DNA of 57,297 nt from a virus. Of this stretch, positions 19,226 to 51,298 are shown one piece after another. Every line of letters starts with the position of its first letter. The stretch's first letter is position 1. Position numbers and translations under genes: made by a program. The stretch is taken from positions 1 to 57,297 of IMG/VR virus record IMGVR_UViG_3300028146_000002; one strand, written 5' to 3'. A model generated the notes under the pieces. It saw only the letters and a list, made by a program, of their open reading frames with translations. It was not told where the DNA came from and searched no databases.

Positions 19226-19438
19226 ATGAGAAAACCCTGCATCATTCTCGCCAAGGCCGCCGTTGAGCGCGTCAACGCAGATCATTATGACGCATTCAAC
19301 GAGGACGGGCGCAAACTCATCTCAACTTACTCCTACCGCAACATCGTTGAATATCTCAAAGGGCAGGAGTTTGAATCTGTGCCGCTCAATTCGAGATGTG
19401 GCAGGACGATTTTAGACAAACTCGAAGCGAACCATTGA
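19226..19438 (+). CDS. Hypothetical small protein upstream of the integrase (possible directionality factor)
   Basis: 70-aa ORF. The call rests on position only. Confidence 0.3.
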   Translation: MRKPCIILAKAAVERVNADHYDAFNEDGRKLISTYSYRNIVEYLKGQEFESVPLNSRCGRTILDKLEANH

Positions 19439-28822: not shown

Positions 28823-29212
28823 TTAGCTCAATATGGACAGGTAAACACCAAAGTCCCACAGGGCCAGTCGCATCAAAGCATCATCGTCCATTGCCAGCAG
28901 GTAAGCGTAGGCAACTGATTGTGTTTTCGTGGTGATGCTGGTGTTGGCCAAATCCTGCCCACCGCCTCCGGCGTTAAGGGCGGCAAACACCAACGACGTA
29001 AAAATCGGCAATAGTTTCTGGCGAGGGATTCCGCGCATTGCGGTTTCGGCGGCCGCCAGATCGGTCTTCACCGTCGCCGCGGTGGTTGTCAGGGCATTTG
29101 AATGAGCGAGGCTATAAAGGCCGAGCGCCAGCATGGCCAACTGCGCGTGATGGTCCAGCAATTGCGGCCCGTAAGGGCCGGCCTGCGTGATGATGTAGTC
29201 AGAATTCGCCAT
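28823..29212 (-). CDS. Hypothetical head-associated protein
   Basis: 129-aa ORF two genes downstream of the putative capsid gene. Confidence 0.35.
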   Translation of the reverse strand: MANSDYIITQAGPYGPQLLDHHAQLAMLALGLYSLAHSNALTTTAATVKTDLAAAETAMRGIPRQKLLPIFTSLVFAALNAGGGGQDLANTSITTKTQSVAYAYLLAMDDDALMRLALWDFGVYLSILS

Positions 29213-29215
29213 AAA

Positions 29216-29512
29216 TCAGTAATCTCCCGACGGGGTGTTGGGCACGCTCTCGCGCAGATCGGTTTTCCAATCCTTCTCGCCGCCCTTGGGATGGACGCAT
29301 TCGACTTCCAAGTCGCCGTCGGCGTCTTCGCCCACGACCTTGAGAGTGATTGTGTCGCCCGCCTTGTAATTCTCCCGTCCGGGAAAACTGTCCGGCAGGA
29401 AAAATGTCTGGTCGCCCTGGTCGGAGCTTTCACTCTCGCCCATCTCGGAAGGATCGCCAGTGTTGGTTGGGCCGCTGGCGTCCGCGGCGTCCATTGCTCG
29501 AAGGATTCGCAT
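29216..29512 (-). CDS. Hypothetical acidic protein
   Basis: 98-aa ORF immediately downstream of the putative capsid gene. Confidence 0.35.
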   Translation of the reverse strand: MRILRAMDAADASGPTNTGDPSEMGESESSDQGDQTFFLPDSFPGRENYKAGDTITLKVVGEDADGDLEVECVHPKGGEKDWKTDLRESVPNTPSGDY

Positions 29513-29519
29513 AAGTCAT

Positions 29520-29547
29520 CCCTCGCCGATCTTTCGACCGGCGAGGG
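29520..29547 (-). promoter_or_regulatory. 9-bp G/C hairpin directly after the putative capsid gene
   Basis: CCCTCGCCG pairs with CGGCGAGGG. No U-tract follows. Confidence 0.45.
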
Positions 29548-29560
29548 TTCAAGTTTAAGA

Positions 29561-30898
29561 CTACGACTCGTCGCAGAACGAGTTGTAAGGTGTGATGTTC
29601 TGGTAGCCCGTGCCAGTGGTGATGCTAGTCGGCCAGGTGATGGTCGCCGAGCGCGGCACGTCAGCAACAGGAGTCGGTTCGCGCAACGCAAGAATCCACA
29701 TCTCGATTGCCGGGAAAATGGTCTTGGTGCCCATCTCGTATTCGCCCAAAAAGTAACCCTTGTTCTTCTTGTCGTTGTAGATGGTGCAGACGCCACCCGT
29801 GTTCGGGTCGGTGGACTGGAACGCATCTGGGTTCTTCCAACTCCATTTGCCCATCAAATTGCGGGCCAGGAACGGCATGTCGGAATTGACGCTCTCGGTC
29901 TCGCCGACATAAACCTCGCGCGCTGCTCGGTTGTAAATGTGGAACAACTGGTAAGGCGCATTCTCGTATTCCGGATCGAACACAGGCTTGAGGCCAACCG
30001 TCGCCGCGCTGTTCTGGAAAGGCCAAATGCGCTTGTAACTGCCACCGCCAAGCCCGGTGAACCGGAGCGGTGTCGCGTCCACGTGGAACAGGAAATTGCC
30101 GCATCCCATCATGGCACCGAACTTGAAGAACTTGCCGCCCTTCGCGAAGTCAGCCGCATTGTACATCATCGTCAGCGCCGGATTTGCCGCGCCCAACTCC
30201 TGGAAGGTGCTGATGTCGCCCATCAATTCAAACATGCCGGTCGGCGTGTAGGCGTTGGCGAAGTAGCCCTGATAAAGCAACTGCGGGGCGAAGTGCTGGA
30301 GATACTGCATCGAAAGCTTGCTCGTCGGAACGCCGCTCGAACCAAGGACCAGCTTCGTGCAGTTCTGCTGGAACATGCTGGCGGTAGTCGCGATCTTCGT
30401 GAAGCCCGAACCGCAGATGTGAATGTAGTCACTCTGCCGCAAGGAAAGCAGCCGCAGGAAATCACTCGTGATGTTGTCGGGCACCTTCTTCAGCCCGTCA
30501 ATGATTCCACCCAACTGCGCTTCCGCTTCTTCGATGTGCCGCAGGCGGTCAAAGCAGAACGGCGGCGTCGAGTAATCGCGGTGATACTTGACGTAGGTTG
30601 AGCGAGTGCTGCCCCAGCCAAGCATCAGGCGCGTCGGATCGCACATCGGCTGAACGGCACAATGACCGCCCGTCGAATCGCTCGCATCCATCGCGTCCCA
30701 ACAACCATCGTCGTTGGGCATCGTGACGTGAATCTTGTCCCAGGTGTGCGTGGTGCCGGTGAAGGATGGCCACGGTTTGGAGGGATAAAGACCGGCGTAC
30801 GTGTAATCAATGGGGAAGCGATCTTTGGAAAGCTCCTTATCCCAGTCCGGAATTCTGCGAAAGAGAAATTCGTTGAACCTGCGACAATCTATGGCCAT
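29561..30898 (-). CDS. Putative major capsid protein
   Basis: 445 aa. It is the first gene of its minus-strand operon and is followed by a hairpin. The call rests on position and size only. Confidence 0.45.
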   Translation of the reverse strand: MAIDCRRFNEFLFRRIPDWDKELSKDRFPIDYTYAGLYPSKPWPSFTGTTHTWDKIHVTMPNDDGCWDAMDASDSTGGHCAVQPMCDPTRLMLGWGSTRSTYVKYHRDYSTPPFCFDRLRHIEEAEAQLGGIIDGLKKVPDNITSDFLRLLSLRQSDYIHICGSGFTKIATTASMFQQNCTKLVLGSSGVPTSKLSMQYLQHFAPQLLYQGYFANAYTPTGMFELMGDISTFQELGAANPALTMMYNAADFAKGGKFFKFGAMMGCGNFLFHVDATPLRFTGLGGGSYKRIWPFQNSAATVGLKPVFDPEYENAPYQLFHIYNRAAREVYVGETESVNSDMPFLARNLMGKWSWKNPDAFQSTDPNTGGVCTIYNDKKNKGYFLGEYEMGTKTIFPAIEMWILALREPTPVADVPRSATITWPTSITTGTGYQNITPYNSFCDES

Positions 30899-31046
30899 GT
30901 TAAAAGTAAGTTGTGCGCAATGCGCGATTTACTGCTGGTTATCACGAAGTCGGATGACTCGGTTGTTTTTACGAGACTCTCTCGAAGGGTTGGCGAACCC
31001 AGAACTAACAGCCGATTAAGGCTTACACCTCATTCAACTTTTTGTA

Positions 31047-31265
31047 TTGACAAAAGATGTGCCCACTGGGAACACTCGCAATGTGTTGTTCAAAGATGCG
31101 CTCAAACTGTGGCGGGGTTCCCGCTCACTGAAAGAAGCGGCTGCGGACCTTGGGATTGATTACCCGAGCTACCGAAAATACGAGACGGGCAAAAGGACTC
31201 CAGTGAAGTTGGCGCAGATCGAAATCGAAAGGCGAATGAATGCGAACCCTGACGGAAAAAGATAA
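31047..31265 (+). CDS. Small HTH protein (start uncertain)
   Basis: SLKEAAADLGIDYPSYRKYETGKRTP is an XRE-like HTH. Confidence 0.45.
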   Translation: MTKDVPTGNTRNVLFKDALKLWRGSRSLKEAAADLGIDYPSYRKYETGKRTPVKLAQIEIERRMNANPDGKR

Positions 31266-31542
31266 GCAACGATATTGGTCAAAGGTTGATGTGCGCGGCC
31301 TTGATGAATGCTGGCCGTGGATAGGATTGATTACGCGCAAAGGATATGGATTCTTTTCGGTCGGCGGAGCACGCGGCGAGCGTGGCGGCAATCACGTTCT
31401 GACCGAAGAACAGGTCCGCAGCATTCGGCGTGAGTATGTTCCGGGGCAAATCAGAATGAAGGACATCGCCATTCGCTACGGCGTTGGCTGGAAGGCAATT
31501 CAGAAAATCATTCAGCGCACTCGCTGGGGCCATCTCACGTGA
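31240..31542 (+). CDS. HNH-endonuclease paralogue lacking the catalytic core
   Basis: It keeps ECWPWIG..KGYGFF and the C-terminal EEQVRSIRREY...IAIRYGV..KAIQKII of its neighbour, but the H-N-H segment is absent. Confidence 0.5.
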   Translation: MRTLTEKDKQRYWSKVDVRGLDECWPWIGLITRKGYGFFSVGGARGERGGNHVLTEEQVRSIRREYVPGQIRMKDIAIRYGVGWKAIQKIIQRTRWGHLT

Positions 31543-31718
31543 AGATCGATCTCCAAAAAGCCCGCACTCTCTGCAATCTTCGCGCCTCCAAAGGCATCAA
31601 GGCTTCTTGGGTCGCAAAGCAAATGGGCATCTCTGCGCCTCATCTGTGCCTGATGGAAAGCGGCAAGCGCACATGGTCTGAGAAGTTGGAAAAGAAGTTC
31701 AGAGCAATCGTTGGATGA
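31539..31718 (+). CDS. XRE-family HTH protein (59 aa, GTG start)
   Basis: GTGA overlap upstream and ATGA overlap downstream. Contains ASWVAKQMGISAPHLCLMESGKR. Confidence 0.5.
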   Translation: MKIDLQKARTLCNLRASKGIKASWVAKQMGISAPHLCLMESGKRTWSEKLEKKFRAIVG

Positions 31719-32305
31719 GTGCTAAGCCACAACAAGGAACTGTGTTGCGCCAAATCGGGCAGGCGTGGCTGATGAAGTGTGATCGCTGTGGAAAAGAGTT
31801 TCTCGCCTATGCGCCCACTCGACATTTTTGCTCTCGGGCTTGTTATCGCCCGAAGGATTTCGCCGAAAGATTTTGGAAAAACGTGGACATAAAAGGACCA
31901 GACGATTGCTGGCTTTGGACATCGCCATCAGTAATCAAGGGCTATCCATCGTTTTACTGTTGCGGAAGGGGGCGGCGTGGTGGTCAGGTCGCGTGGATGT
32001 TGGAGCATGGAGAATTTCCGAAGCTTTGGGTTCTTCATAAGTGTGACGTGCCGCTTTGTGTTAACCCAAAACATCTATTCTTGGGGACGGCGATGGATAA
32101 CAATGCGGACATGATTCGGAAAGGACGCGCCAACCCCCCGCGAGGCGAGCGTTCAGGCAATGCAAAACTTAAACAGGCACAGGTTGATGAGATACGACAA
32201 CGGCATTCTTTGGGGAATATTACGCAACGCAAACTTGCTTTGGAATTTGGTGTCAGTTTTAAAACGATAAACAAAATAGTTCTGAACCAGAGGTGGGCGG
32301 TATGA
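31715..32305 (+). CDS. HNH endonuclease (HNH_3 type, homing-endonuclease-like)
   Basis: DCWLWTS..KGY, VLHKCDVPLCVNPKHLFLGTAMDNNADM, and a C-terminal HTH. Confidence 0.75.
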   Translation: MSAKPQQGTVLRQIGQAWLMKCDRCGKEFLAYAPTRHFCSRACYRPKDFAERFWKNVDIKGPDDCWLWTSPSVIKGYPSFYCCGRGRRGGQVAWMLEHGEFPKLWVLHKCDVPLCVNPKHLFLGTAMDNNADMIRKGRANPPRGERSGNAKLKQAQVDEIRQRHSLGNITQRKLALEFGVSFKTINKIVLNQRWAV

Positions 32306-34659
32306 TTCCCCTTATTTGGGTGCTTCTTGGGCGTACGGGTGATTTGATTTCAGTTCTTCCCCTTCTCCGCGAAGAAGCGCAAGCAGGTCGCCGCCCAACA
32401 CTCATGGTTGCCAAGGAGTTCCTTGGCGTGATGACTGGCGTAAGTTATTGCGATGTGGTTCCGTTTGATGGCGCGTTCGATGACTTGGATGGTGCAGTTG
32501 CCAAGGCGAAGGAGATTGCGGTCGAAGTGAAATGCGTTCAAGTCACAGGGCCGCCTGATGCGGTGAAGCGCTTGACCTACGATCCCACGAACACTGATTC
32601 TGCTAAGACGGATTGTTTCCAGAAAGAGGTTTGGCGGTTCATGGGCAGGTTCGATAGGTGGAAGGACCAGCCACCGCTCATGTTTGATGGACGCGATCCT
32701 GAACGTGAAGTTGCCTTGCTGAATTCAATTGTCCGCCCTGCTAAGAAGAAGATTCTCCTTGTCGCTCTCGGCGGGAACAATGCGCCGTTTCCATATCCAG
32801 ACCTGTGCTTTGAACTCCTGCGTCTCAAGTTCCCGAAGATGCACATTATTGACTTATCGAAGATAAAGGCGAAACAGGTTTACGATCTACTCGGTCTTTA
32901 TGAGATGGCGCATTGCCTTGTGGCCTGTGATAGCGCCCCGCTTCATCTGGCGTATGCACTCGTAAAGACGCTACCGGTGGTCGCGCTCATCAATGACAAG
33001 CCTTCGCTGTGGCACGGGTCCGCATGGCGCGCGAATCACATCGCCCACATTCGCTACACCGATTTTCCAAAGGCTGCGGTGGAGATGCTGGACGCGATTG
33101 AGAACATCGGCAAACCCGGCTCGCCATTTGACCCATCGTTGAGCACACCGAAGATTGTGCATGTCTGGTCCTGCTACGAAATCTCAAGCGAGAACGAAGA
33201 ACGCACTGCCAACGCCGCCGACCTGTGGTATGAGCAGTCGAACGTCGTCGCGTGTCCGGTGGAAGTCGGTTCCGTCGGCCAGGATTCCGCCAACGTGCTC
33301 AAGGATGATAAGCGATTCCCGATGGTCCGCGATGTCATCCGCAAAGCCTGTTATCGCGCTGAGCCTGATGACGTGATTTGCCTCACACGTTGCGATACGT
33401 CTCCGACACCTGGACTTGCCGAGCGAATCCTTTCAGGGCCGCTCCCGGCATACGCCCATCGCACCATCCGCAATGGCGACGGCGACACCTTCCATCCCGC
33501 GGTGGACTTGTTCGCCTTCACGCGGGCGTGGTGGGACGCGCACGGTTCAGAGATGCCGCCGATGGTGCTGGCGATGGACACTTACTGGAATCGCGTGCTG
33601 CTTGATGTGGTGAAGAAGCACGGCGCCCATGAGTTGCCATTTGCTATCCATCGCGAACCAGGCACGCCCGCAGCAGTATCACCTGTGGCCACCAAGCGTT
33701 TGCTCCACAACGAGAATGAAGCCCTGAAATGGTGGCAGAAGAACGGCAGCAAGATTGAGCCTGAGCCGGCCACACAACAAACGTCCGAGGGTTGGATGGT
33801 CAACCGCCATGCGCTCCTGCAATACGGCTACAATCCGAGCATCATTCGCGTTGGTGACCGGCTGCTGATGGCCTACCGCTGGCATCCAGAACACGAAAGC
33901 CGCACGAGGCTGGCCGTCGCTGAACTGGACGCAACCTTTGGCGTCATGGTGAACAAGCAGATTCAGGTCGAAGCGAAGTCAGCCGAAGATCCGCGGCTGT
34001 TCATCTTTGGAGGTGCGCTCTGGATTTGTTACGTGGACAGCACCTTCCCTGACAGAGATCCGAAGTGCATCACGCGATATGGGCGGTTGCGCGAATATGA
34101 GAATCATTGGGCAGTCGAGGATATTTACCAGCCGATGATTGGGAAGAATGACGGATCATCGCTCGAAAAGAATTTCGTTCCGTTTGCCTTTGAGGACAAG
34201 CTGCTTTGCATCTACCAAACGCACGGCGAACAAATCGTCCACGTCCTCGAAGGCGACAAGTCGGTTCTCACACATCGCGCGCTCGGCCCACGCTGGCCAT
34301 ACGGTCCTATGCGCGGTGGCACTGTGCCGCTTCCTTACAAGGGAAAATTTCTGCGCTTCTTCCACTCTGGCTTGGATAACGAACCCCCACCGTGGCGACG
34401 GCGTTATTACGTTGGTGCGATGCTTATGGAACCAACGCCACCATTCCAGACTGTCGCCATCAGCAGTGAACCAATCCTTCGCGGCAGTGAGCGCGACGAA
34501 TTGAGCGATGTCGAGCGGCAGGGTTGTCAGCAATATAAGGCCAAGGTCGTGTTCCCCTGCGGCGTGCTGGCTTATGAAAAGGATTGGCTGCTCTCAATCG
34601 GAGTGAACGATAGTGCGTGCGCGTTGGTGAAGATAACGGAGGATGATCTGCATCTATGA
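32302..34659 (+). CDS. Multidomain glycosyltransferase (N-terminal GT9-like, central domain, C-terminal GH130/DUF377-like beta-propeller)
   Basis: LLGRTGDLISVLPLL and ACDSAPLHLAYAL are the GT9 pattern. The C-terminal NPSIIRVGDRLLMAYR ... EDPRLF ... FVPF is a glycosylase-like propeller pattern. Confidence 0.5.
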   Translation: MIPLIWVLLGRTGDLISVLPLLREEAQAGRRPTLMVAKEFLGVMTGVSYCDVVPFDGAFDDLDGAVAKAKEIAVEVKCVQVTGPPDAVKRLTYDPTNTDSAKTDCFQKEVWRFMGRFDRWKDQPPLMFDGRDPEREVALLNSIVRPAKKKILLVALGGNNAPFPYPDLCFELLRLKFPKMHIIDLSKIKAKQVYDLLGLYEMAHCLVACDSAPLHLAYALVKTLPVVALINDKPSLWHGSAWRANHIAHIRYTDFPKAAVEMLDAIENIGKPGSPFDPSLSTPKIVHVWSCYEISSENEERTANAADLWYEQSNVVACPVEVGSVGQDSANVLKDDKRFPMVRDVIRKACYRAEPDDVICLTRCDTSPTPGLAERILSGPLPAYAHRTIRNGDGDTFHPAVDLFAFTRAWWDAHGSEMPPMVLAMDTYWNRVLLDVVKKHGAHELPFAIHREPGTPAAVSPVATKRLLHNENEALKWWQKNGSKIEPEPATQQTSEGWMVNRHALLQYGYNPSIIRVGDRLLMAYRWHPEHESRTRLAVAELDATFGVMVNKQIQVEAKSAEDPRLFIFGGALWICYVDSTFPDRDPKCITRYGRLREYENHWAVEDIYQPMIGKNDGSSLEKNFVPFAFEDKLLCIYQTHGEQIVHVLEGDKSVLTHRALGPRWPYGPMRGGTVPLPYKGKFLRFFHSGLDNEPPPWRRRYYVGAMLMEPTPPFQTVAISSEPILRGSERDELSDVERQGCQQYKAKVVFPCGVLAYEKDWLLSIGVNDSACALVKITEDDLHL

Positions 34660-34985
34660 GCAACGAGGAAATACGGCTAGCAATAGCGCAAGTTTTGGAA
34701 CCACAGCAGGAGTGGGAGATTTTTGAGGACATCTATCTCAATGCCCCGCAGCCTTACAGAAAGGATGTCGGCTTCCGTTATCCAGCGCATTCGGGTTGGA
34801 TTATAGCAAAGAATTACCCCGAAGACCTGAACGCGATGCACGAGGCGGCTATGTCAATGACGACAGCCGAGCGGAAGGAAATGAGGTTTTGGCTTTATGA
34901 ATTGACAGATCAAATGAGTGCCCACGATGCCACTGCCAAGCAGCGTGCAGTGGCATTCCTTCGGGTGAAGGGGCTTTGGAAATGA
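34656..34985 (+). CDS. Hypothetical conserved phage protein
   Basis: ATGA-coupled start. Contains NYPEDLNAMHEA...ATAKQRAVAFLRVKGLW. Confidence 0.45.
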   Translation: MSNEEIRLAIAQVLEPQQEWEIFEDIYLNAPQPYRKDVGFRYPAHSGWIIAKNYPEDLNAMHEAAMSMTTAERKEMRFWLYELTDQMSAHDATAKQRAVAFLRVKGLWK

Positions 34986-35587
34986 GCGACCTTGATCTAT
35001 TCGTCCGCATCGCCCGCCTGCATCCAAATGTGGATGGCTGGTGCCCGTTGCCAAAGGCGCAGACGATGGCGGCTGCTGTGCTCGCCTTGCGTCCCGATGT
35101 CACTGTTGAAATCGGCATCTACGGCGGCAAGTCGTTCCTGCCGATGGCACTGGCGCATAAGGAAATTGGCCATGGCGTTTGCCTTGGCATTGACCCGTGG
35201 AACCCGACTGAATCAGCGAAGGATCAGGAGCATCCTGCCGACCGCAAGTATTGGGGCGAACTGAATCACGAAGCGGTGATGAACAAGTTCTTCAAACTGA
35301 TGAACGATCTCAAACTGCATGATTGCACGAAGATAATCCGCCAGCCGAGCGACCAAGTGATTCCACCTGAGAACATCGGCATCCTGTCACTCGATGGCAA
35401 CCATGGTGAGGCATCCATTCGTGATGCCAAACGGTTTGGCCCCAAGGTGCGCGTCGGCGGTTTGGTCTTCGTGGACGACATTGGATGGACAGGCGGCAAG
35501 GTCCGCATCGCTGTGCACGAACTGATCGAAATGGGATTCAAGCGGATGTATGACCTTGGTAGCGGTATTGTGATGCAACGAACATGA
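34982..35587 (+). CDS. Class I SAM-dependent methyltransferase (Methyltransf_24-like)
   Basis: VEIGIYGGKS, LDGNH, and VFVDDIGW. Confidence 0.55.
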   Translation: MSDLDLFVRIARLHPNVDGWCPLPKAQTMAAAVLALRPDVTVEIGIYGGKSFLPMALAHKEIGHGVCLGIDPWNPTESAKDQEHPADRKYWGELNHEAVMNKFFKLMNDLKLHDCTKIIRQPSDQVIPPENIGILSLDGNHGEASIRDAKRFGPKVRVGGLVFVDDIGWTGGKVRIAVHELIEMGFKRMYDLGSGIVMQRT

Positions 35588-35727
35588 GCATTCTTGTTTT
35601 ATTCGTAGGGCTAGGCGGTCTCATTGTCATGGTTTCATTCATACTGTCATGTAGGCTTAACGATCTTGAGGACAGAATTGTGACTTGCGAGAGAAAATTG
35701 AAAGAGATGTTTCCTGATATAACATAG
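35584..35727 (+). CDS. 47-aa single-pass membrane protein
   Basis: ATGA-coupled start. Translates as MSILVLFVGLGGLIVMVSFILSC. The region is locally AT-richer. Confidence 0.4.
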   Translation: MSILVLFVGLGGLIVMVSFILSCRLNDLEDRIVTCERKLKEMFPDIT

Positions 35728-35728
35728 T

Positions 35729-36460
35729 ATGCCGCTGCTTCAATTCAACCTCACGGGACGCTTTGGGAATCTGCTTTTTCAGACAGCCTATGCTTTTGCT
35801 TGGTGCCAGCAGAGCGGCTACGATCTATGCCTTCACCCATGGATTGGCGAGCAAATATTTTCAGGGCTTCCAAAGGTCGTGCGCCCCGAGAACCACACCC
35901 CTGACCTTGTGTGGAATGACCGATTGTTTCAGTGCCAACTTGATCTGATTTACACGCGCAAGCAGGTGCGTGAATGGTTCAAGCTCAAGCCCGAGGTTGA
36001 GAAGATGCTCGTGCCTGCCAGATTCCCAAATCGCGTGTGTTTGAATGTTCGGCAAGGGCAGGACTATCGCGATGCAGGACTTGTGACACTTTCAGAGAAG
36101 TGCTATGCGAATGCCGCGATACGACTTGGTTTCAGTCCGGGTGATTGCCGATTCGAGACGGACCTGAACCCAATCACGCTGCCCGCATTTCCAGGAGATT
36201 TGAGATCCAGTGGTCATTGCGTCTCGGCGGTTGGCCTGCCGTCGTTCTATCGGCTGATGACTGCGCCGGTTTTGCTGAGGGCAAATTCTACGTTCAGTTA
36301 TTGGGCTCATGTTCTGTCTGAGAATCAGGTCGTTTACTCACCTGTGATTCGTGGACTACCCGGTGGAGTGCCAAATGTGGACTGCCAAACTTTCCTTCGC
36401 GGCAACTTCCCCGCGATGGTGGATTCGCCTGACCATTCGGATCTTTATCTACAAGAATGA
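35729..36460 (+). CDS. GT11-like (fucosyltransferase-type) glycosyltransferase
   Basis: The N-terminal GRFGNLLFQTAYAFA resembles the GT11 motif GRLGNQ(L/M)FQYA. Confidence 0.45.
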   Translation: MPLLQFNLTGRFGNLLFQTAYAFAWCQQSGYDLCLHPWIGEQIFSGLPKVVRPENHTPDLVWNDRLFQCQLDLIYTRKQVREWFKLKPEVEKMLVPARFPNRVCLNVRQGQDYRDAGLVTLSEKCYANAAIRLGFSPGDCRFETDLNPITLPAFPGDLRSSGHCVSAVGLPSFYRLMTAPVLLRANSTFSYWAHVLSENQVVYSPVIRGLPGGVPNVDCQTFLRGNFPAMVDSPDHSDLYLQE

Positions 36461-37041
36461 CCCTCGAAGAAATCTATCGCCAGAAGTGCAACGAGCCGTC
36501 GGACATCAATGAGCATTTGCCGGTTCTTCGGGAGTATGCCTCAATGTGCCAGCACGCGACTGAGTTTGGCGTCCGGGGCATTGTCTCGACGTGGGCACTT
36601 CTTTGCGGCCTTGCGTGGGGTGCATGGAGATGTGGGTGGGATGGCGGCAACAAGCACACGAGAACCCTTGTGTCATACGATCTTACCCATCCGGGGAAAA
36701 GTGCAATTGATCAGGTGCAGGCGTTAGCGATTGATTCCGGAGTTCGGTTCAAGTTCCTTGTCGGGGACACTCGAAAAATCACTATTGATGAGACGGACCT
36801 GTTATTCATTGATACCTTCCATACCTACAACCAACTCAACGCCGAACTCAGGTTGCACAGCACTAAGGCTCGCAAGTTCATCATCCTGCACGATACTGAA
36901 ACCTTCGGGCGCAGGGGCGAAGCGGGCGACGAGGCTGGGTTGCTTGTTGCGATGGACCTGTTCCTCGCAGAAAACCTGCACTGGAAAATGAGGGCGCAAT
37001 TCTACAACAACAACGGACTGACCATTCTCGAACGCAAATGA
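36457..37041 (+). CDS. Class I SAM-dependent methyltransferase-like protein
   Basis: SDINEHLPVL..EFGVRGIVST ... LLFIDTFHTY ... ILHDT. Confidence 0.45.
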   Translation: MTLEEIYRQKCNEPSDINEHLPVLREYASMCQHATEFGVRGIVSTWALLCGLAWGAWRCGWDGGNKHTRTLVSYDLTHPGKSAIDQVQALAIDSGVRFKFLVGDTRKITIDETDLLFIDTFHTYNQLNAELRLHSTKARKFIILHDTETFGRRGEAGDEAGLLVAMDLFLAENLHWKMRAQFYNNNGLTILERK

Positions 37042-37448
37042 ACTGGGAATATTTGAATCGCTGCCGTCTCCAGCCCGAAAAGGATCGACAATTCGGAACT
37101 ACCCCATCGGACGGGTTCAACGGATTCTTTTGCCTAATCCTTAATGGACTTCCGATCAAGTGCATTGCCAGTGATGGCATGGGGTGGCAGCACGTTTCGG
37201 TGTCCATCGCTAACAGCACCAACACCCCATCATGGTCCATTATGTGTCAGGTCAAAGACTTGTTCTGGAATGACGAGGACTGGGTTGTTCAATTTCATCC
37301 CGCGAAATCTGAGTATGTAAACAATCATCCCGGCGTGCTCCACTTGTGGCGATGCACGACTCAGGCTTTCCCGCAGCCGGATCGGATAATGGTCGGATAC
37401 AAAAATCAAGCCGACCTTGATCGAGTGGCCGCCATGTCAAACCCATGA
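37038..37448 (+). CDS. Conserved hypothetical protein
   Basis: ATGA-coupled start. Contains IASDGMGWQHVSVS...QFHPAKSEYVNNHP. Confidence 0.45.
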   Translation: MNWEYLNRCRLQPEKDRQFGTTPSDGFNGFFCLILNGLPIKCIASDGMGWQHVSVSIANSTNTPSWSIMCQVKDLFWNDEDWVVQFHPAKSEYVNNHPGVLHLWRCTTQAFPQPDRIMVGYKNQADLDRVAAMSNP

Positions 37449-38014
37449 GCAAACTTATCTCCATACTCATGCCCACTCGCGGAAACATCGGCGGGCTGAT
37501 GCTTGCCCTCGGGTCAATCAAGCGCACGGCGACCAATATGGACGAGGTTGAAATCCTGCTGCGGATGGACGACGACGACCCCAATCGAACCGCTATAGCC
37601 GATGGACTTGCGGCTGACTTCGGCGCGCGCACCATTGTTGGCCCTCGCGGACGCGGCTACATTGACATGGGTGTGTTCATCAATGATTTGGCTAAAGAGG
37701 CGACTGGTCAATGGTGCTGGCTGATGGACGATGACGCATGGATTGAAGGCAATTGGCAGCCGCAGATCGCCGCCATTCCCGCCGATCCCGCCAATGGTCC
37801 GTGCCTCAACGCTGAGTTCTATCAGCTTGGCCCGAGCCATTACGTCACGCCGCAAGACAGTCCAGTTGGACTCATTATGCCGACGGCGCTCGTGAAGAAG
37901 ATTTCACACAACAATCCAGTGGACGCTCAATGGTGGAGCATCTCGCGGCAGATGGGCTGGACGACGCACTTTCTGAAAGGTGTCACGTACTATCACGAAG
38001 GGAGAGCACGATGA
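37445..38014 (+). CDS. GT2-family glycosyltransferase
   Basis: ISILMPTRGN, MDDDD, and WLMDDDAW (DxD). Confidence 0.55.
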   Translation: MSKLISILMPTRGNIGGLMLALGSIKRTATNMDEVEILLRMDDDDPNRTAIADGLAADFGARTIVGPRGRGYIDMGVFINDLAKEATGQWCWLMDDDAWIEGNWQPQIAAIPADPANGPCLNAEFYQLGPSHYVTPQDSPVGLIMPTALVKKISHNNPVDAQWWSISRQMGWTTHFLKGVTYYHEGRAR

Positions 38015-39003
38015 CTCTCAATATTTCGTGGCTAACGTCGCGCAAGGCACCATGTTTCGAGTGGTTTATTTCTTCGCTCCTGCGTCAACTCAAAGGCGAT
38101 TTCACCGACATTCAGATCATCGTCGTGGATTATTGGTTGCAGGAGATTCCGCATCACAACTGGACCACCGATGATGCGACGAAGCGGCGGACGGCATGGC
38201 AGGCGATGATTCCCAGTGGCCTTCAATGCGTGCTCACAAATCCTAAGCCTACACCGTGGCAGGGTCCGCATCGCCTAACGAAGAACGACTACTTTGCCGC
38301 AGCGAATACACGCAATACCGCCATCTGTTTCGCCAAGGATGGGCACCTTGCTTACGTGGACGATCTATCCGTGCTCTGTTCTGAGTGGCTACAAGCCGTG
38401 CGCGAGGCGTGCGGGGCGAATCGCATCACCGCTGGCGCATTCAAGAAGCACAAGAACCTCGTGGTTGAGAACGGCGAGGCAAAGAGTTTCGATGTGTATG
38501 AGCCGGGAATGGATAGCCGATGGTCGCATGGCAGAGACTACGCCATCCCGTGCCCGCCAACATGGTTGTTTGGATGCTCGCTCGTCGCGCCAGTTGAGCG
38601 GTTCTTGGAAGTTAACGGATGGGCAGAAATCTGCGACTCGGGCGGGTTGGGACTTGAGGATTGTTCGATGGGTATCGCGTGGGCAAATCATGGACACCAA
38701 CTTTGGTACGATCGCCGGATGCTCACCTACGAGAGCGAGGAACGCCACTTCCAGCAACCGAGTATGAGGCGGATAGACAAGAAGAAGGATGGCACTGTGA
38801 CGATTCCAGGATATGGCACACATCCCGACGAGAAAGGGCATCATCTCGTCCGCGTGCTGTCCAAGGCCAAACGATTCACGAACTACTTTGAACCGGGTGG
38901 CATCGAGCGTCTCCGACAACGAATCTTGTCAGGCGAACCGTTTCCAGTTATCCTTGAACCTCGCCACGACTGGCATGACTCGCAACCTTTGGAACAACTA
39001 TGA
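38011..39003 (+). CDS. Putative GT-A-like glycosyltransferase
   Basis: ATGA-coupled start. Contains IQIIVVDYW and AYVDDLS. The evidence is weak. Confidence 0.35.
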   Translation: MTLNISWLTSRKAPCFEWFISSLLRQLKGDFTDIQIIVVDYWLQEIPHHNWTTDDATKRRTAWQAMIPSGLQCVLTNPKPTPWQGPHRLTKNDYFAAANTRNTAICFAKDGHLAYVDDLSVLCSEWLQAVREACGANRITAGAFKKHKNLVVENGEAKSFDVYEPGMDSRWSHGRDYAIPCPPTWLFGCSLVAPVERFLEVNGWAEICDSGGLGLEDCSMGIAWANHGHQLWYDRRMLTYESEERHFQQPSMRRIDKKKDGTVTIPGYGTHPDEKGHHLVRVLSKAKRFTNYFEPGGIERLRQRILSGEPFPVILEPRHDWHDSQPLEQL

Positions 39004-39272
39004 CAAACACCGACAAGCCCATGGAACTTAACGACGCCATCTCCCGCCTGCTCAAGAGCGGCGTGGTCAAGGTCACCTTCGGCCAGCGTGACGACAATAC
39101 CATCGGCGTGATGGCTGAGCAGATGCTCAATGCAGGTGAGCAACATTTCATGCACCAAGCGAGCGATGTGACCGCCGAAGAAGGATTCAACAAAGTCCTG
39201 CGCTCGGTCGAACATGCGGCTCAACTTCAAGACACGATCCTCAAAATCCCGCGCAACGGGAAACTCAAGTAA
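39000..39272 (+). CDS. Hypothetical protein
   Basis: 90-aa coupled ORF. Confidence 0.4.
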   Translation: MTNTDKPMELNDAISRLLKSGVVKVTFGQRDDNTIGVMAEQMLNAGEQHFMHQASDVTAEEGFNKVLRSVEHAAQLQDTILKIPRNGKLK

Positions 39273-39577
39273 TGGGCGACACGAAAGAACTATTCCTTCG
39301 GCAGACTGAACTCTGCGAGCAGTTGAATGCCGTAGTTACCACGGACTGGTTTAAGAAGTGCCTCGCCTTCGCCTGTGCTGAATTGATGGAGCGCCCCGGT
39401 GTCACATCGGAGCATTTGGCCGGCGTCCAGCGATTCAAGGTTGTCCTACTGTCCATGACTGATGATGACGATGATGAGTCTGTGGCGTTGCCGTCCAGTG
39501 GACTCATCCACAATTTAGACATTCCTTCCCGAGATGTTCCGCCTCAACCAAAGCCTAAACGAAAGAAGAAAACATGA
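39272..39577 (+). CDS. Hypothetical protein
   Basis: 101-aa coupled ORF. Confidence 0.4.
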   Translation: MGDTKELFLRQTELCEQLNAVVTTDWFKKCLAFACAELMERPGVTSEHLAGVQRFKVVLLSMTDDDDDESVALPSSGLIHNLDIPSRDVPPQPKPKRKKKT

Positions 39578-40794
39578 AGATTCTGCTCGCTCCTGATTCC
39601 GGCGCTGCCGTCGCAGCTCCACCTGCGCCCGCTACTCCCGCGCCTGCCAAACCAACCGCCCCGGCGCCAGCCGAAGGCGGGGATGACTTTTCCAGCGTGG
39701 ACGCGCTCGCCAAAGCGCCGAAGCCGAAAGCCGCTCCCGTCAAGCCTGAGTCGCCGAAGGACACGAAGGATGCCCCCAAGCCAAAGGACGAGAAGTCTGC
39801 TCCTGCCGAGCCTGCCTTTGACGATCCGGACGATAACAAGTTCCAAACCCCGAAGGCATTGCGCGAGGCACGCAAGCGGGCTTTGAATGAACTCAACAAC
39901 ACGAACCAAAAGCTTCGTGAGTATGAGCGCAAGATCGCGGATGCCGATGGTAAAGGCAAAGACACATCGGCATTGGCCAAACGTGTCGAGGCGTTGGAGA
40001 AAGAGAAAGAGGATCTGCACGCTAGCCTGCGGGCCGCCAAGCAGGAGGTCTCACCTGACTTCAAGCAGAAGTATGAGGCACCGCTTGAAAAGGCGATTAA
40101 ACGTGCTCATGCCCGCATTGGAGAGTTGAAAATTTTGGATGAAGCGGGAACTCCGGTGGCCAATGCTGACTGGAAGGTATTCAGTAAAATCTATGGCATG
40201 GAGCGCGAAGTGGCCAAGCAAGAGGCAAAGCGCCTATTTGGTGATGATGCTGACCTTGTGATGGATTATCGCGCTGAGATCCAGCGGCTCACCGAAGATC
40301 GCAATGAAGCGTTGGAGTCTGAGAAAGAGAACTGGAAAGCCCGCCAGGAAAAGGAACGTGCCGACCAGGCATTGCAAGCCGAGCAATGGGAGACCGCCCA
40401 ACAGGAAGCCATCCGCGAAGTGGCTGAGCGCAATGCCGAATGGTTCCAGGATGGCAAGGACGCTGACGAGAACGCCATTCGCAAGGCATCCATGACCGTA
40501 CTCGAGAATGGCGTCAAGGGTTTGGACAAGGACGGCAACCCGTTAACGCCAAAGAAACTGGCTCAATTCGTCGCTACAGTGCGTCACCGCGCGGCCAACT
40601 TCCCCGTAATGGTCCGCAGGCTCACCGATGCACTGGAGCGCGTTTCAGAGCTTGAGGGCGTGCTTGCCGAGAAGAATGGCAGTGCGCCGGGTGCAACGGC
40701 TCATCCTGCGTCCGGGGTTGACGAACGAAAGCCTGAGACTGATTGGCGGGATGATTTGCGCAAGAGTGTGCCGACAGTCAATGACGGTGGCTAG
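39574..40794 (+). CDS. Putative scaffolding protein
   Basis: 406 aa with an A/P/K-rich N-terminus followed by long charged coiled coils. Confidence 0.4.
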   Translation: MKILLAPDSGAAVAAPPAPATPAPAKPTAPAPAEGGDDFSSVDALAKAPKPKAAPVKPESPKDTKDAPKPKDEKSAPAEPAFDDPDDNKFQTPKALREARKRALNELNNTNQKLREYERKIADADGKGKDTSALAKRVEALEKEKEDLHASLRAAKQEVSPDFKQKYEAPLEKAIKRAHARIGELKILDEAGTPVANADWKVFSKIYGMEREVAKQEAKRLFGDDADLVMDYRAEIQRLTEDRNEALESEKENWKARQEKERADQALQAEQWETAQQEAIREVAERNAEWFQDGKDADENAIRKASMTVLENGVKGLDKDGNPLTPKKLAQFVATVRHRAANFPVMVRRLTDALERVSELEGVLAEKNGSAPGATAHPASGVDERKPETDWRDDLRKSVPTVNDGG

Positions 40795-43700
40795 TCACTG
40801 AGAGACCTCCCAATCCTTCGATATTCGGGCGCCTGTGACGCCCATCGCAGTTGCCTTTGCAATGGCGGGCATCCACATATCCATGAGACTGATTTGACTA
40901 TCAGTCATCCCGAGCCCTTCGCGCCATACATCGTGCATCGCTTCGGCGGCCGGGATTGGCAATGCGGTCTGCGTGATGTATTCCGGCCACGTATAAGGCT
41001 CAACGCCCTGCGCCCGTAGCCGCTTTGGCAATTGCGTCTTGCCGGGAAGCATTCCAAATCCCGCCGCAGGAAGCGGACGCTGCTGGAAGTCCCGCCCAAA
41101 GGCCAAGTCGGCCGTCATTCCCGCAAATGGACTGAGCTGCGTACGGGCATACTGGAAAAGCGTGTTTGCTGTGTTCTCATCCTCGTAAACGATCTTGTTG
41201 AGTTTGCCTTCATTCTTGATTCCAGACCACAGGCGCAATGGCAATCTGGCCATCGCAAGCATCGGTCCCCCATAGGCGATGTTCTGGCCTGCGATTTTGA
41301 ACTTCAGGAAGTCACTACGATTTGGGTCAGTGAAATTGATTTCCTGATCGCTTCCCATTGCGGAAAGTAGACCTTGGTTGATAGCCAAGAGCCCATACAG
41401 AGTGCCAACCACCCACGCCTTCTCTTTGACCTGCTGGACAGCGAACCACTTCTCTGCGTCTGTGGACTTCTTCCAGCGCAGGAATGTATCAGCCGCCCTG
41501 ACTGGATCGCCAACGAGCCACATAGCACGCGATGCTTCCAGTCGAGGGGCAAATAGAAGGACGTTCGTAAACTTGGGGGCGCTCTTTGCAGTGATTCCGG
41601 TGATGTGATTTACGTCATCGGCAATAGCCGCAGCCATGTCGGCTGTCTGCTTGTGCTTCGGTAGTTGGTCCCAATGATGGTTGAATATGTCCTGCCGAAG
41701 ATTCTTAAGCACGGCGTAACCACGATTACCTGCCCCTGTAACGGCGTTGAAATATTCTGCCACCTTGGGTGATATTCTATCTGCACCACTCCTGATGGCG
41801 CCAGTAATCTCGGGAATATTATATTCCTCAATTGCGTCGGGGTTGTTTTGAAGTCCCGCACGCCTCGCAACTGTGTAGTTTGGATCACTCAACAAATCCT
41901 TGCGCATCATCTGGAAGAAGGCAGGACTTTTCAGCATCCTCACCATGCGCCCGTAATTCTTGAAATACGTGCCCCAGTGCTTGGGCATATAGAACAGTGC
42001 TGGGGCATGGGTTCCAAGAGCAACAAGCCCATGAAGACCGCCACCAATCTTGAGCGAGAACATGGCTCTTGGAATGGTAGCGAGTGCTCGGAGATACATC
42101 GGAACCTGCGTGGACTTGAGCCATGTCTTGGCTTGCAGCTTGTAGCGCCACAGTGCTTCCTGCTTTCGCCACGCTTCGTCAGCCAGGAACTTCGCTCGCT
42201 TGTTCTTCGTCATCAACTCCGTGACTTGCTTAGTGCTCAGCCCAAGGTCTGATGCAACCTTGCTGCGGATCGTATCGAAATCATCCTCGCCCTTATCGAG
42301 ATACTCTTTGACCTTTTCCCAGACGCGCTTCTCAGGATTGACGCGAGCATCCGTCTCGGCCTTGGCTGCGTCAATGGCTGCTTGGCGAACTCTGGCATTG
42401 GCCGCGTCGAGAGCTTTCTTTGTGGCGATCTCCTGATCATTCGGTGGACGCGCGGATGCTTCTTTGACCCTCGCTTGATTCTCTGCGTCTGCTAAACGTG
42501 TTGCTGCTTCGCGTGCTGTCTTCTGTGACGCCTCAAGCGCCTTGCGTGCAGCATCCTCTTGCACTTTCGCAACCTCACGCTCGCGCACTGTCTGAGCAAC
42601 GCGAGCCTTGTTCTCTGCGTCTGCTAAACGGACGGCATTCTCTCGGACGGTTTTATTGGCGGCATCAAGGGCACGCTTCTCGGCGTTGCTACTGCCTGCC
42701 TGCTTCTCAAGTTCGGCATTGAGCGCAGTCTTTGCACCCTCCGCTTCGCCTTCTGCCTTCTTCACGCGACCAGCAATGGACTTGGCGGTCTTGGTTTGCT
42801 GCGGCGTGAAATCCTTATCGGTGGCGTCAGTGTAAGCCTCGCGCAAGCCTGTGAACGTCCCGGTGTCAATGTCCTGCTCGCCCTGTTGTGCCATGCCCGA
42901 CTTGTGCCACTCGGTCTGCATCGGCTTAATGCGGGCCGCCCAATCCGAACGTGCCTTCCATGCCGCGCGGTATTCAGGTGAATCGGTGCCGAACTTTTCT
43001 TCCGTGCGCCTGGCCTCGAATGCGAGTTGCCTCAAACGAGCACGAGCAACAGCAATGCCTTCAGCGGAGACGGACTTAGTTGGGTCGGACTCAAACTTGG
43101 CCATTACTGCTTCGGCAGCATTCGGGTCTTTTGCCAGCAACGCCTCGCCGCTCTGAACCGATTCGGCGGCGGCGATTCCTTCGCCCGGTGGCGGTAATGC
43201 TTCTTGTCCAGACGCAGCAACCTTCTCTCGGACACGTTGAGCCACGCCGGTAACGTCGGCACCTTCATTGGGGCCGAACTCTGACGGAGTGGCCCCACCC
43301 ATGCCGACTATTTCACCTTGAACCGGCGCTTCTCCTTCTCGTGACTCCACGGGTTGGGATTGCTCGGGTGCAACTTGTTCCAAGTCATTGCTGCTAACTT
43401 TTTCGCCTCCTTCGATGACTTGCCCCGACGGAGGTAGCTGTCCCTGATTTCCTCGTATTGCTTCGGCATTTGGCACTCCTTTCTCTGGTGTTATGGCATC
43501 AAACTCTTTGTTTGGAAATACATTCTCGTCAATCCATTTGCCCAAAGCTGGATCTTTGTCGTAAACGTCCTGTCGTAAGTCAGCCCACTCCTGCGGGTCT
43601 TCAAACATTCTTGCGGGTGGATCAATTCCAATCTCTCGCACCCTGGCATTAGCAATCAGCGGGGCTTCCTCAATCTGCCTCGCACGCTTTTTAATTGCGT

Positions 43701-46752: not shown

Positions 46753-46753
46753 A

Positions 46754-47728: not shown

Positions 47729-47873
47729 GGTAAAAGAGTCACGCTGTTAGCGGTAAAGTCAAGAAGTAAGGTGCCTGCTTCCGTGGATGGCTGCGGCAGG
47801 CGCGCGGGAGGTGGATGAAGTCTCGCTGGTATGAATACCGAAATGTCCAGCCTACGCTCTCACGGATTACGAT

Positions 47874-51262: not shown

Positions 51263-51298
51263 GCAACGGCTTTACACCCTTTCTTGCGATGTGGCAAC

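Follow-up and report, generated by a model that had tools for sequence, protein, structure and literature searches.

The closest described counterparts of this locus come from mycobacteriophages and chloroviruses. As PMC11600133 reports, citing Freeman et al. 2023, cluster O mycobacteriophages carry an O-methyltransferase gene followed by three tandem glycosyltransferase genes, whose products modify capsid and tail tube proteins, and cluster F1 phages carry two glycosyltransferases (Freeman et al. 2023, as cited in PMC11600133, PMC11256854, PMC12619734). In chlorovirus PBCV-1, capsid glycans are built in the cytoplasm by A111/114R, which has three glycosyltransferase domains, and A064R, which has two and a methyltransferase (PMC7826918). 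Among GH130 enzymes, Uhgb_MS, Teth514_1788/1789 and Lin0857 have transferase activity, and GT108 mannosyltransferases are related; it is exactly the beta-1,2-mannoside phosphorylase subgroup in which GDP-mannose transferase activity is known (PMC12814180). Phage GT-A and GT-B enzymes are also known to glycosylate 5hmC, heptose included (bioRxiv 10.1101/2023.12.21.572611).

The window analysed here, the whole stretch of 57,297 nucleotides, represents a 57-kb uncultivated phage and holds nine plus-strand open reading frames, g1 to g9, at 32302-39003. As the sequence-only reading had proposed, these are joined mostly by ATGA overlaps, which are 4 nt long and occur at seven of the eight internal junctions (g4 and g5 are separated by a 1-nt spacer), but the coupled chain proved longer than claimed: 15 plus-strand genes at 31240-40794, extending past the nine on both sides, with ATGA or GTGA overlaps at 12 of 14 junctions. 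It runs from an HNH remnant (31240-31542) through a 59-aa protein (31539-31718), HTH-like by sequence reading only, and an intact HNH endonuclease directly before g1 (31715-32305) to g1-g9, then d1 and d2 (90 and 101 aa; 39000-39577), two small conserved proteins at the end of the cassette, and finally a 406-aa scaffold-like protein (39574-40794). A start for g9 at 37930 was rejected, the frame beginning at 38011. The junctions of the chain head (31240-32305) are GTGA/ATGA overlaps, PHROG HNH endonuclease matches there go down to 7.8e-28, and relatives carry homologous HNH genes upstream of g1 or within it. Neither promoter-like sites (4 versus 6.9 in shuffles) nor terminator-like sites (13 versus 13.9) are in excess in the operon region. 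The reading frames of the cassette are intact, overlapping and coupled, and its G+C is that of the remaining genome, with no compositional anomaly.

On one side of the chain lie a putative capsid gene and then fibre or spike genes; on the other lies a block of large virion-type proteins with a terminase-like gene. That the operon lies between genes for capsid and scaffold, as proposed earlier, is plausible, although neither flank matches a known capsid or scaffold family. The putative major capsid protein (445 aa; 29561-30898, minus strand, divergent from the operon) gave no match to capsid families, PDB sequences or GenBank phages, and the putative scaffold protein, coiled-coil and A/P/K-rich, gave only weak matches of coiled-coil type; the flanking proteins showed no homology to known capsid, scaffold or portal families. 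The sources label both proteins "hypothetical protein". Both genes keep their places in relatives. A capsid-like homologue, 36-78% identical, is present in every related contig reaching that position, always about 1.5-3 kb from g1, and the scaffold-like gene, ATGA-coupled to d2 in this phage, keeps its position at 23-36% identity. Homologues of d2 stand immediately upstream of it in 13 of 15 cassettes; family searches with d1 and d2 gave no match.

The first cassette gene, g1 (32302-34659), encodes a 785-aa enzyme of three domains. The two claimed for it were upheld, and an additional middle domain, probably GT-A, had been overlooked. Residues 1-275 (32302-33126) form a GT9-like GT-B domain: PF01075 matches weakly in 26 of 53 family members (best 3.8e-6), Foldseek finds the GT9 structure 3tov (E 2.7e-6), and G13-D14 and D210-S-A-P-L-H-L-A, the DSAPLHLA motif quoted earlier, are invariant or nearly so among relatives. 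Residues 283-482 (33148-33747) form an alpha/beta domain with strand/helix alternation in the AF2 model and the conserved motifs LTRxDT and HPxxDLFAFTKxWW. Its best PDB profile match is weak (XXYLT1, GT8; E 0.097), it has no similarity to the g9 profile, and it is probably GT-A-like. Residues 495-785 (33784-34659), the source of the quoted NPSI..R and EDPRLF, form a GH130-type five-bladed beta-propeller, as predicted. Pfam PF04041 matches above cut-off (1.7e-9; 37.5 bits, cut-off 26), the PDB profile finds beta-1,2-mannobiose phosphorylase (6.8e-7) and also Lin0857 and Uhgb_MS, and Foldseek agrees (1.2e-12), the TM score against Teth514_1788 being as high as 0.69. The propeller is closest to beta-1,2-mannoside phosphorylases/synthases, and the residues aligned with theirs (D563 of EDPR, H688 and R701-Y702) are invariant among relatives. 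Unlike the GH130 enzymes, with which it shares only 12-17% identity, it is phage-borne, its role would be biosynthetic rather than catabolic, and in the g1 family it is fused to, or encoded directly beside, two other transferase-like domains. Catalytic-type residues of g1 are invariant across 16-53 relatives. The AF2 model is compact and confident across domains (pLDDT 94, pTM 0.91), as expected if the domains share one substrate. Among the BFVD entries that Foldseek listed for g1 are uncharacterised proteins of pithovirus, mimivirus and PBCV-1 (Q89398).

Both methyltransferases proposed earlier were recovered. The first, g3 (201 aa; 34982-35587), is a class I SAM enzyme by direct Pfam match to Methyltransf_24 (PF13578, 9.8e-12; 46.1 bits, cut-off 26.3); it follows g1 in most relatives, and a Methyltransf_24 gene adjoins the g1-like gene of a distant phage (L034). 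The second, the accessory g6 (194 aa; 36457-37041), has no direct Pfam match and appears CmcI/Methyltransf_24-like through its relatives. Its family comprises 3188 representative clusters, and the homologous stretch in relatives is overlapped by Methyltransf_24 or rhamnosyl O-methyltransferase/CmcI matches and fused to GT2, GT1 or GT17 domains. For g5 (243 aa; 35729-36460), in which the quoted motif GRFGNLLFQTAYA was found, the label "GT11-like" was too specific, although the fucosyltransferase-superfamily fold stands: the AF2 model (pLDDT 92.6) suggests a fold nearest NodZ/FUT8 (GT23), with NodZ (7.1e-5), FUT8, plant FUT1 and POFUT1 as top Foldseek matches. The best four PDB profile matches are POFUT1, aligned weakly (E about 0.7) over the GRFGN motif, and PF01531 is carried by one of 80 relatives. 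The GT2 identity of g8 (189 aa; 37445-38014), with its ISILMPTRGN and DDD motifs, was confirmed by PF00535 (5.5e-9; 36.6 bits, cut-off 23.3). That of g9 (330 aa; 38011-39003) as GT-A-like was borne out as GT2-like through relatives, since some of its 339 metagenome homologues have precomputed PF00535 or PF02709; its weak top PDB profile matches (all E about 1) include the GT-A enzymes GalT1, a PglI-type glucosyltransferase and chondroitin synthase. Among 15 cassettes, the accessory genes g5 and g8 each occur in six and g9 in ten, and four cassettes without g9 have a GT25-like gene.

The 47-aa g4 (35584-35727) is, as described before, a membrane peptide, with a single N-terminal hydrophobic helix (residues 3-21; Kyte-Doolittle 19-residue mean 2.88). 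It is the only cassette product with a stretch of transmembrane grade, every cassette enzyme scoring at most 1.64, and no g4 was found in related contigs. Pfam searches and the hydrophobicity scan revealed no flippase, polymerase or membrane transferase among the cassette products. Of the two supposed conserved unknowns, g7 (136 aa; 37038-37448) belongs to DUF7694 (PF24746, 4e-27; phrog_7839, 5.6e-22), and g2 (109 aa; 34656-34985) gave nothing in family searches and has no homologue in any fetched relative. Neither is conserved within related cassettes; a 50% identical g7 homologue lies immediately upstream of the g1-like gene of L031. The region takes up insertions, as seen from the two HNH genes and from g2, g4 and g7, which related cassettes lack.

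In every examined related contig (50-77 kb) that reaches it, g1 adjoins the divergently oriented capsid-like gene, at 37-62% identity, and it lies upstream of the scaffold-like gene in all relatives extending that far. Cassette gene order is kept, and 116 metagenome homologues of g1 and 80 of g5 were found; together these indicate that the cassette genes are not chance reading frames. Around the constant g1 the content varies (g9 or the GT25-like gene, g5, g8, g6, Methyltransf_21 genes), resembling a conserved core with variable decoration. In this respect the cassette is like that of PBCV-1, as it is in having three glycan-building domains per polypeptide and a methyltransferase that would cap the glycan; synthesis is cytoplasmic in PBCV-1 and would be so here. 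It differs in belonging to a bacteriophage rather than a eukaryotic giant virus, in its GT9-like GT-B domain and GH130 propeller, and in having the methyltransferase as a separate gene. With the mycobacteriophages it shares tandem glycosyltransferase and O-methyltransferase genes, soluble enzymes and a gene set that characterises the lineage instead of turning up sporadically as a moron. However, neither tblastn of g1 nor blastn of the cassette found a match among GenBank phages (50,697 records), so that no homology links it to the proven mycobacteriophage enzymes; the families here are GT9-like, GH130-type and fucosyltransferase-like, Gram-negative bacteria of the environment are the probable hosts instead of Actinobacteria, and glycosylation is a prediction.

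We tentatively place first the reading that the cassette glycosylates the virion with a methylated glycan, late and in the cytoplasm, on a putative phage structural acceptor; the likeliest candidate is the capsid protein encoded by the divergent gene next to the cassette. A short glycan would be built by g1: one sugar would come from its GT9-like GT-B domain and one from its probable GT-A domain, and its propeller, running in the direction of synthesis, would attach a beta-linked mannose with mannose-1-phosphate or GDP-mannose as donor. The g3 product may then O-methylate the glycan, and strain-variable elaboration would follow, in this phage by g9, g8, the fucosyltransferase-like g5 and the second methyltransferase, g6. 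Late timing is suggested by gene order alone; donor sugars and step order are offered as conjecture, and the acceptor above all. In its favour we count the coupling into a chain that ends at the scaffold-like gene without an excess of promoter- or terminator-like sites, the family-wide conservation of g1, the phage-only families, the soluble enzymes, the core with variable content, the mycobacteriophage and chlorovirus precedents, the GDP-mannose transferase activity of the propeller's nearest subgroup, and the compact g1 model. Against it we count the tentative capsid and scaffold identities, the absence from the putative capsid protein of any obvious Ser/Thr-rich extension at its ends, comparable to the termini glycosylated in mycobacteriophages, and of enrichment in N-x-S/T sequons, the association of GT9 with the LPS inner core, the integrase, and the lack of sequence kin in GenBank phages.

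Two of these points bear on the host envelope (LPS core, capsule or another surface glycan), which the enzymes might instead remodel at the cytoplasmic membrane face, blocking superinfection or preventing the adhesion of progeny particles to cell debris. The N-terminal domain of g1 resembles GT9 heptosyltransferases, whose classical acceptor is the LPS inner core. Since GT9 enzymes are soluble or peripheral, the absence of transmembrane segments is compatible with such a role. Many temperate phages alter the O-antigen, and the tyrosine integrase encoded by this phage makes prophage expression conceivable. Like the gtrABC and oac modules of temperate phages, the cassette is phage-borne and glycan-modifying and shares its genome with an integrase, but with 8-9 genes it is larger than those modules (1-3 genes), without a GtrA flippase or a bactoprenol-linked GtrB-type or GtrC-type membrane transferase, and it lies 12 kb from the integrase, chained by translation to the scaffold-like gene with no surplus of promoter- or terminator-like sites. 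It is also not sporadic, g1 being present in every examined family member, and homologues of g1 are confined to contigs of phage size. We regard envelope remodelling as less likely than virion glycosylation, and as the strongest of the rivals. Ranked slightly below it is another phage-made or host cytoplasmic acceptor, such as a fibre-like, spike, internal or ejection protein, or else a small molecule. The fibre-like proteins contain 21-23% Ser+Thr and their sequons are weakly enriched (17 versus 11.9+-2.9 and 14 versus 9.7+-2.7 expected), and in distant phages the g1-like gene adjoins a giant ORF of 2082-2541 aa. That ORF reads like a virion-internal protein, by composition and an HELGH motif only. 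Nothing points specifically to such an acceptor, however, and it is the capsid-like gene that is kept as neighbour throughout the family.

Glycosylation of hydroxymethylated bases in phage DNA is very improbable. The phage does encode a C5-cytosine methylase (10929-11951), and known DNA-hypermodifying clusters likewise contain GT-A and GT-B enzymes, at times several in a row; but those clusters adjoin C5-methylase/TET or ThyS genes (bioRxiv 10.1101/2023.12.21.572611), whereas the cassette lies 20 kb from the methylase, in the structural region, and the scanned ORFs include no TET/JBP-type dioxygenase, thymidylate-synthase-like hydroxymethylase or other 2OG oxygenase. None of the pathways described in that study offers a precedent for a GH130 propeller. 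Least probable of all, and disfavoured, is a captured host LPS island carried as silent or decaying cargo, a scenario that the sequence-only reading had named: the region does accept insertions, but frames are intact and coupled, catalytic-type residues are invariant, synteny holds down to 37% identity, and the matching G+C, with all listed g1, g9 and g5 homologues on contigs no longer than 77 kb and none chromosome-sized, makes recent capture unlikely.

Between the two functions first suggested for the cassette, the evidence leans towards modification of the virion over lysogenic conversion. The description of the cassette as unusual needs qualifying, since it is a standard syntenic feature across a whole family of uncultivated phages. 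The family-wide position of g1 fits a function intrinsic to these phages better than it fits a sporadic moron.

The nine plus-strand genes that the sequence-only reading had placed at 32302-39003 are all present, and the chain to which they belong is longer than proposed. They encode, in order, the 785-aa three-domain protein g1 (32302-34659), g2 (109 aa, 34656-34985), the Methyltransf_24 protein g3 (201 aa, 34982-35587), g4 (47 aa, 35584-35727), a protein of fucosyltransferase-superfamily type, g5 (243 aa, 35729-36460), g6, which is methyltransferase-like through its relatives (194 aa, 36457-37041), the DUF7694 protein g7 (136 aa, 37038-37448), the GT2 protein g8 (189 aa, 37445-38014) and the GT2-like g9 (330 aa, 38011-39003). 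Seven of the eight junctions are the ATGA overlaps that had been noted as the usual join, the exception being a one-base spacer between g4 and g5. The full coupled chain comprises 15 genes, with ATGA or GTGA overlaps at 12 of 14 junctions, and extends past both ends of g1-g9: an HNH remnant, a 59-aa protein and an intact HNH endonuclease lie upstream (31240-32305, plus strand), and two small proteins followed by a 406-aa coiled-coil protein lie downstream (39000-40794, plus strand). Promoter-like or terminator-like sites showed no excess over shuffled sequence in the chain region, and the G+C content of the cassette equals that of the remaining window. The 47-aa membrane peptide of the earlier reading, g4, is the sole cassette protein with a membrane-grade hydrophobic helix. 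A gtr-type module (GtrA, GtrB and GtrC beside an integrase/attP) was considered and rejected, there being no TM-grade segment in the enzymes and no such Pfam matches.

The HNH genes recur. Besides the remnant and intact copy in the window, they lie upstream of g1 in the related loci L002, L007, L014, L024 and L033, and in L008 and L012 an HNH gene (L008 11353-11826) sits between the two parts of a split g1. It looks as if a homing endonuclease were following a conserved gene.

At the centre of the cassette, g1 is a previously undescribed enzyme of three domains, modelled from a 53-sequence alignment with a mean pLDDT of 94.2 and a pTM of 0.91. Its N-terminal 275 residues are a remote relative of GT9. 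Enzymes of this family use an ADP-heptose donor and an LPS-core (or protein) acceptor, and carry a catalytic Gly-Asp near the N-terminus and a nucleotide-sugar motif, D-S-x-x-x-H-L-A, towards the C-terminus. In g1, G13, D14, D210, H215 and L216 are invariant in the 53 sequences, and S211, A212, L214 and A217 among the 16 closest relatives; the model has a GT-B fold like that of GT9 (Foldseek to the GT9 family protein 3tov, E 2.7e-6 over 318 columns, model pLDDT 94). PF01075 itself gave no match to the window protein at E<=0.1, short of the curated threshold, and weak matches in 26 of 53 relatives, the best at 3.8e-6. Because this homology is remote, membership of GT9 is unproven: the proposed GT9-like N-terminus stands in fold and motifs but falls below significance in Pfam. 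The following alpha/beta domain (residues 283-482) bears LTRxDT and DLFAFTKxWW motifs, and we think that it may be GT-A-like, from a single weak PDB profile match to XXYLT1 (E 0.097). It showed no similarity to the g9 profile in hhalign and had no matches of its own among the best 50 Foldseek rows for g1.

The GH130-like C-terminus that had been recognized by eye is borne out by Pfam, PDB profiles and Foldseek alike. This C-terminal third matches PF04041 over residues 510-782 (37.5 bits; cut-off 26), as do 25 of the 53 relatives, and its profile finds beta-1,2-mannobiose phosphorylase, Lin0857 and the "mannoside synthase" Uhgb_MS in the PDB. The model forms a five-bladed propeller (E 1.2e-12 to 3wau; target-normalised TM 0.68-0.69 to Teth514_1788 and 7fip). 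Residues D563 (EDPR), H688 (aligned with the His of YHG) and R701-Y702 (aligned with RY) do not vary among the 16 closest relatives. In GH130 enzymes loop L2 decides between phosphorylase and transferase activity; GDP-mannose can also act as mannose donor for the beta-1,2 subgroup, but not for the beta-1,4 phosphorylases, and GT108, a related family, consists of genuine mannosyltransferases (PMC12814180).

Of the two methyltransferases that had been proposed, g3 has a direct match to Methyltransf_24 (46.1 bits against a gathering score of 26.3), whereas g6, without a direct Pfam match, is methyltransferase-like through its relatives: matches to Methyltransf_24 or RMNT_CmcI (rhamnosyl-O-methyltransferase/CmcI) overlap the g6-homologous stretch in P0318, P0319, P0322, P0333 and P0338. 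The g6 family is very large, with relatives in which GT2, GT1 or GT17 domains are fused to this stretch. Assignment of g5 to GT11 was not upheld, with no Pfam match at E<=0.1 and a precomputed PF01531 match in one of 80 relatives. Its structure model (pLDDT 92.6) is nearest to NodZ (Foldseek 7.1e-5, TM 0.52), then FUT8, AtFUT1 (plant FUT1) and POFUT1; its profile aligns GRFGN and RxGxD motifs to POFUT1 without significance (E about 0.7), and R108 and D112 are invariant. As modelled, g5 belongs to the fucosyltransferase superfamily (a fold of the GT11/GT23/GT37/GT65/GT68 type), within which GT11 is not demonstrable. Single-sequence PDB searches with g5 and g6 returned nothing. The claimed GT2 protein is g8, which exceeds the cut-off for PF00535 (36.6 bits against 23.3). 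The further GT-A-like protein, g9, gave no direct PF00535 match; PF00535 or PF02709 is carried by about one-fifth of its relatives among the matches listed, and since these families are seen in relatives and not directly, we call g9 GT2-like and go no further. One of two supposed conserved unknowns, g7, has a Pfam family, DUF7694; the other, g2, has no family match. The g7 gene is absent from the cassettes of close relatives; a homologue with 50% identity directly precedes the g1-like gene of a distant phage contig of low GC (L031 9311-9703).

The cassette is not peculiar to this phage. For g1 we found 116 homologues; many of their contigs measure 50-60 kb, and among the matches listed no contig exceeds 77 kb, an upper limit that applies to the listed homologues of g5 and g9 as well. 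An exact search for the window's own g1 retrieved no entry. One relative of 54,711 bp was recovered from two samples, where its assemblies begin at different points. Among 35 related loci fetched, each that shares the capsid-like gene (445 aa, 29561-30898, minus strand in the window) and reaches beyond it has g1 on the opposite strand, 1.5-3 kb away. The scaffold-like gene (the 406-aa protein, 39574-40794) lies 4.5-8.7 kb 3' of the g1 start in the 14 distinct cassettes of which both borders are present. The content between g1 and the scaffold-like gene is mosaic. While g1 is constant, in about half of the cassettes two genes encode it, one for a GT9+middle protein and one for the GH130 part; most cassettes have g3, 10 of 15 have g9 (with a GT25-like gene in the four without g9), g5 and g8 each occur in six of 15 and g6 in three of 15, and Methyltransf_21 and many singleton genes occur in others. 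More distant phages with other neighbours also have a GT9+middle protein together with Methyltransf_24 and two more methyltransferases. In one such lineage (L026, L030 and L034; L034 1492-9117 and 9743-14489) the GT9+middle protein follows a 2082-2541-aa ORF with a HELGH zinc-peptidase-like motif and precedes Methyltransf_24 and two further class I methyltransferases. Against viral models, the best Foldseek matches of g1 are uncharacterised proteins of uncultured tailed phages and giant viruses. The cassette had been called unusual; it is a lineage hallmark and not a one-off. Calls of host from metagenome-assembled genomes (MAGs) are unreliable for this phage family, because one phage (L010 and L011, 92-98% identical DNA) was binned in both a Verrucomicrobiota and a Planctomycetota MAG.

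The identical 127 nt at the two ends of the window (1-127 and 57171-57297) point to a complete genome of about 57,170 bp, assembled as a circle (or terminally redundant); no tRNAs were found in it. The left arm encodes a sliding-clamp-like protein, an ERF recombinase, a helicase, a Toprim protein, a C5-cytosine DNA methylase (10929-11951, plus strand) and a tyrosine integrase (19396-20331, plus strand), and a pooled scan, which gives no positions, found a YqaJ nuclease, an N6/N4 DNA methylase and a Methyltransf_11/25 protein elsewhere among the ORFs. Two fibre-like proteins (24633-26312 and 27064-28788, minus strand), for which relatives show beta-helix or lyase domains, have an N-terminal region of about 100 aa in common; it opens with a signal-peptide-like hydrophobic stretch, unusual in a tail fibre, and includes a motif of about 35 aa repeated twice (ILSxGAAFYAL..R.L...Q..LLS). 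The putative large terminase (999 aa, 51284-54283, plus strand) has a Walker A motif (GPGSSAKT) at residue 123 and a DEA/C at 246-249 split by an intein of about 350 aa ending in HN/S (596-598); against GenBank phages, tblastn matched the intein alone, in Vibrio and Corynebacterium phage helicases. Six proteins of 1273, 438, 275, 324, 847 and 281 aa occupy 40795-51262 and have no homologue in the fetched flanks of the relatives; the minus-strand gene for the first converges on the scaffold-like gene, their stops abutting at 40794/40795 with zero intergenic space.

The 445-aa protein is probably the major capsid protein, judging from its size, composition, position and conservation across relatives, and the 406-aa protein probably the scaffold, from its size, composition and position. 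Neither identity was confirmed by homology: PHROGs, Pfam, a profile of eight relatives against the PDB and PHROGs on all eight gave no capsid match, source annotations of the capsid-like protein uniformly read "hypothetical protein", and tblastn against GenBank phages returned nothing for the 445-aa, 406-aa or 847-aa proteins. Five cysteines of the capsid-like protein (C4, C85, C114, C370 and C441) are invariant in the eight relatives. Two plus-strand ORFs nearby do not have the appearance of genes, one of 499 aa antisense to the capsid-like gene (29102-30601) and one of 165 aa over its 5' end and into the divergent intergenic region (30662-31159).

The reading that we favour, at somewhat less than an even chance, is virion glycosylation, by a glycan built on one of the phage's structural proteins. 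What the analysis shows is a co-oriented, overlapping chain of soluble transferase-like and methyltransferase-like proteins, conserved residues of catalytic type, phage-only families, a fixed position and variable accessories; the cassette is chained to the putative scaffold gene and divergent from the putative capsid gene, which may place it beside a structural module. The chain would be transcribed late in infection together with the scaffold-like gene; g1 would build a short core glycan in three steps, its GH130 domain acting synthetically; g3 would methylate this glycan and the variable enzymes would decorate it. The acceptor would be a structural protein, most likely the neighbouring capsid protein. 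Because we infer the acceptor, the biological role ascribed to the cassette is likewise a proposal. The capsid-like protein has no Ser/Thr-rich tail, and Ser/Thr and sequon statistics singled out no acceptor. Two precedents support this reading. In cluster O mycobacteriophages an O-methyltransferase and three glycosyltransferases encoded in tandem act on the capsid and tail tube (PMC11600133, PMC12619734), and the window cassette likewise combines methyltransferase and glycosyltransferase genes. Chloroviruses make their capsid glycan in the cytoplasm with the multidomain A111/114R and A064R (PMC7826918); g1 is also multidomain. A blastn search with the cassette DNA and a tblastn search with g1 gave no match among 50,697 GenBank phage records, and thus no sequence homology to the proven enzymes of the mycobacteriophage type.

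The cassette could instead remodel the host envelope, a possibility that we consider unlikely but take seriously, given the association of GT9 with LPS and the presence of an integrase. Yet that integrase is 12 kb from the cassette, there is no flippase or membrane transferase, the cassette is coupled to the scaffold-like gene and its conservation is family-wide. Somewhat less likely again is another cytoplasmic acceptor, such as the fibres or internal proteins. Sugar hypermodification of DNA is very improbable: among 51 further window ORFs there was no TET/JBP 5mC dioxygenase or ThyS-type hydroxymethylase, although very divergent ones may escape, and 20 kb separate the cassette from the C5 methylase, unlike the clustered genes of known pathways. 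Passive captured cargo, which the sequence-only reading had named as its own undoing, is the least credible of all, being at odds with the conservation and coupling of the genes, their composition and the sizes of the contigs.

The initial observation is thus confirmed and extended, and its interpretation in part supported. The cassette is best filed as a real lineage hallmark that fits virus-encoded glycan-building cassettes and is centred on an undescribed g1. To our knowledge, virus-encoded virion glycosylation has been shown experimentally in few systems (chloroviruses, other giant viruses and mycobacteriophages). The capsid-like gene and the 4.5-8.7 kb cassette form a concrete, cloneable test set, and the natural mix-and-match cassettes could be used to tie enzymes to glycan structure. 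A GH130-type propeller seems to have been recruited for biosynthesis, and the GT9-like domain may have a non-LPS acceptor. Were the envelope the target, the cassette would also be new, as phage surface remodelling of unusual size, encoded by core genes in a late operon. Virion glycosylation, if true, would here be family-wide, syntenic and different in its enzymes, in uncultivated phages whose complete genomes measure about 55-60 kb. Taken to its full extent, which we regard as possible but doubtful, the reading would extend virus-encoded capsid glycosylation past actinobacteriophages and giant viruses: a tailed-phage family of environmental, possibly PVC-group, hosts would build a methylated, strain-variable glycan coat on its capsids at assembly, through an enzyme whose GH130 "phosphorylase" propeller would act in biosynthesis, as a mannosyltransferase, beside GT9-like and GT-A-like domains.
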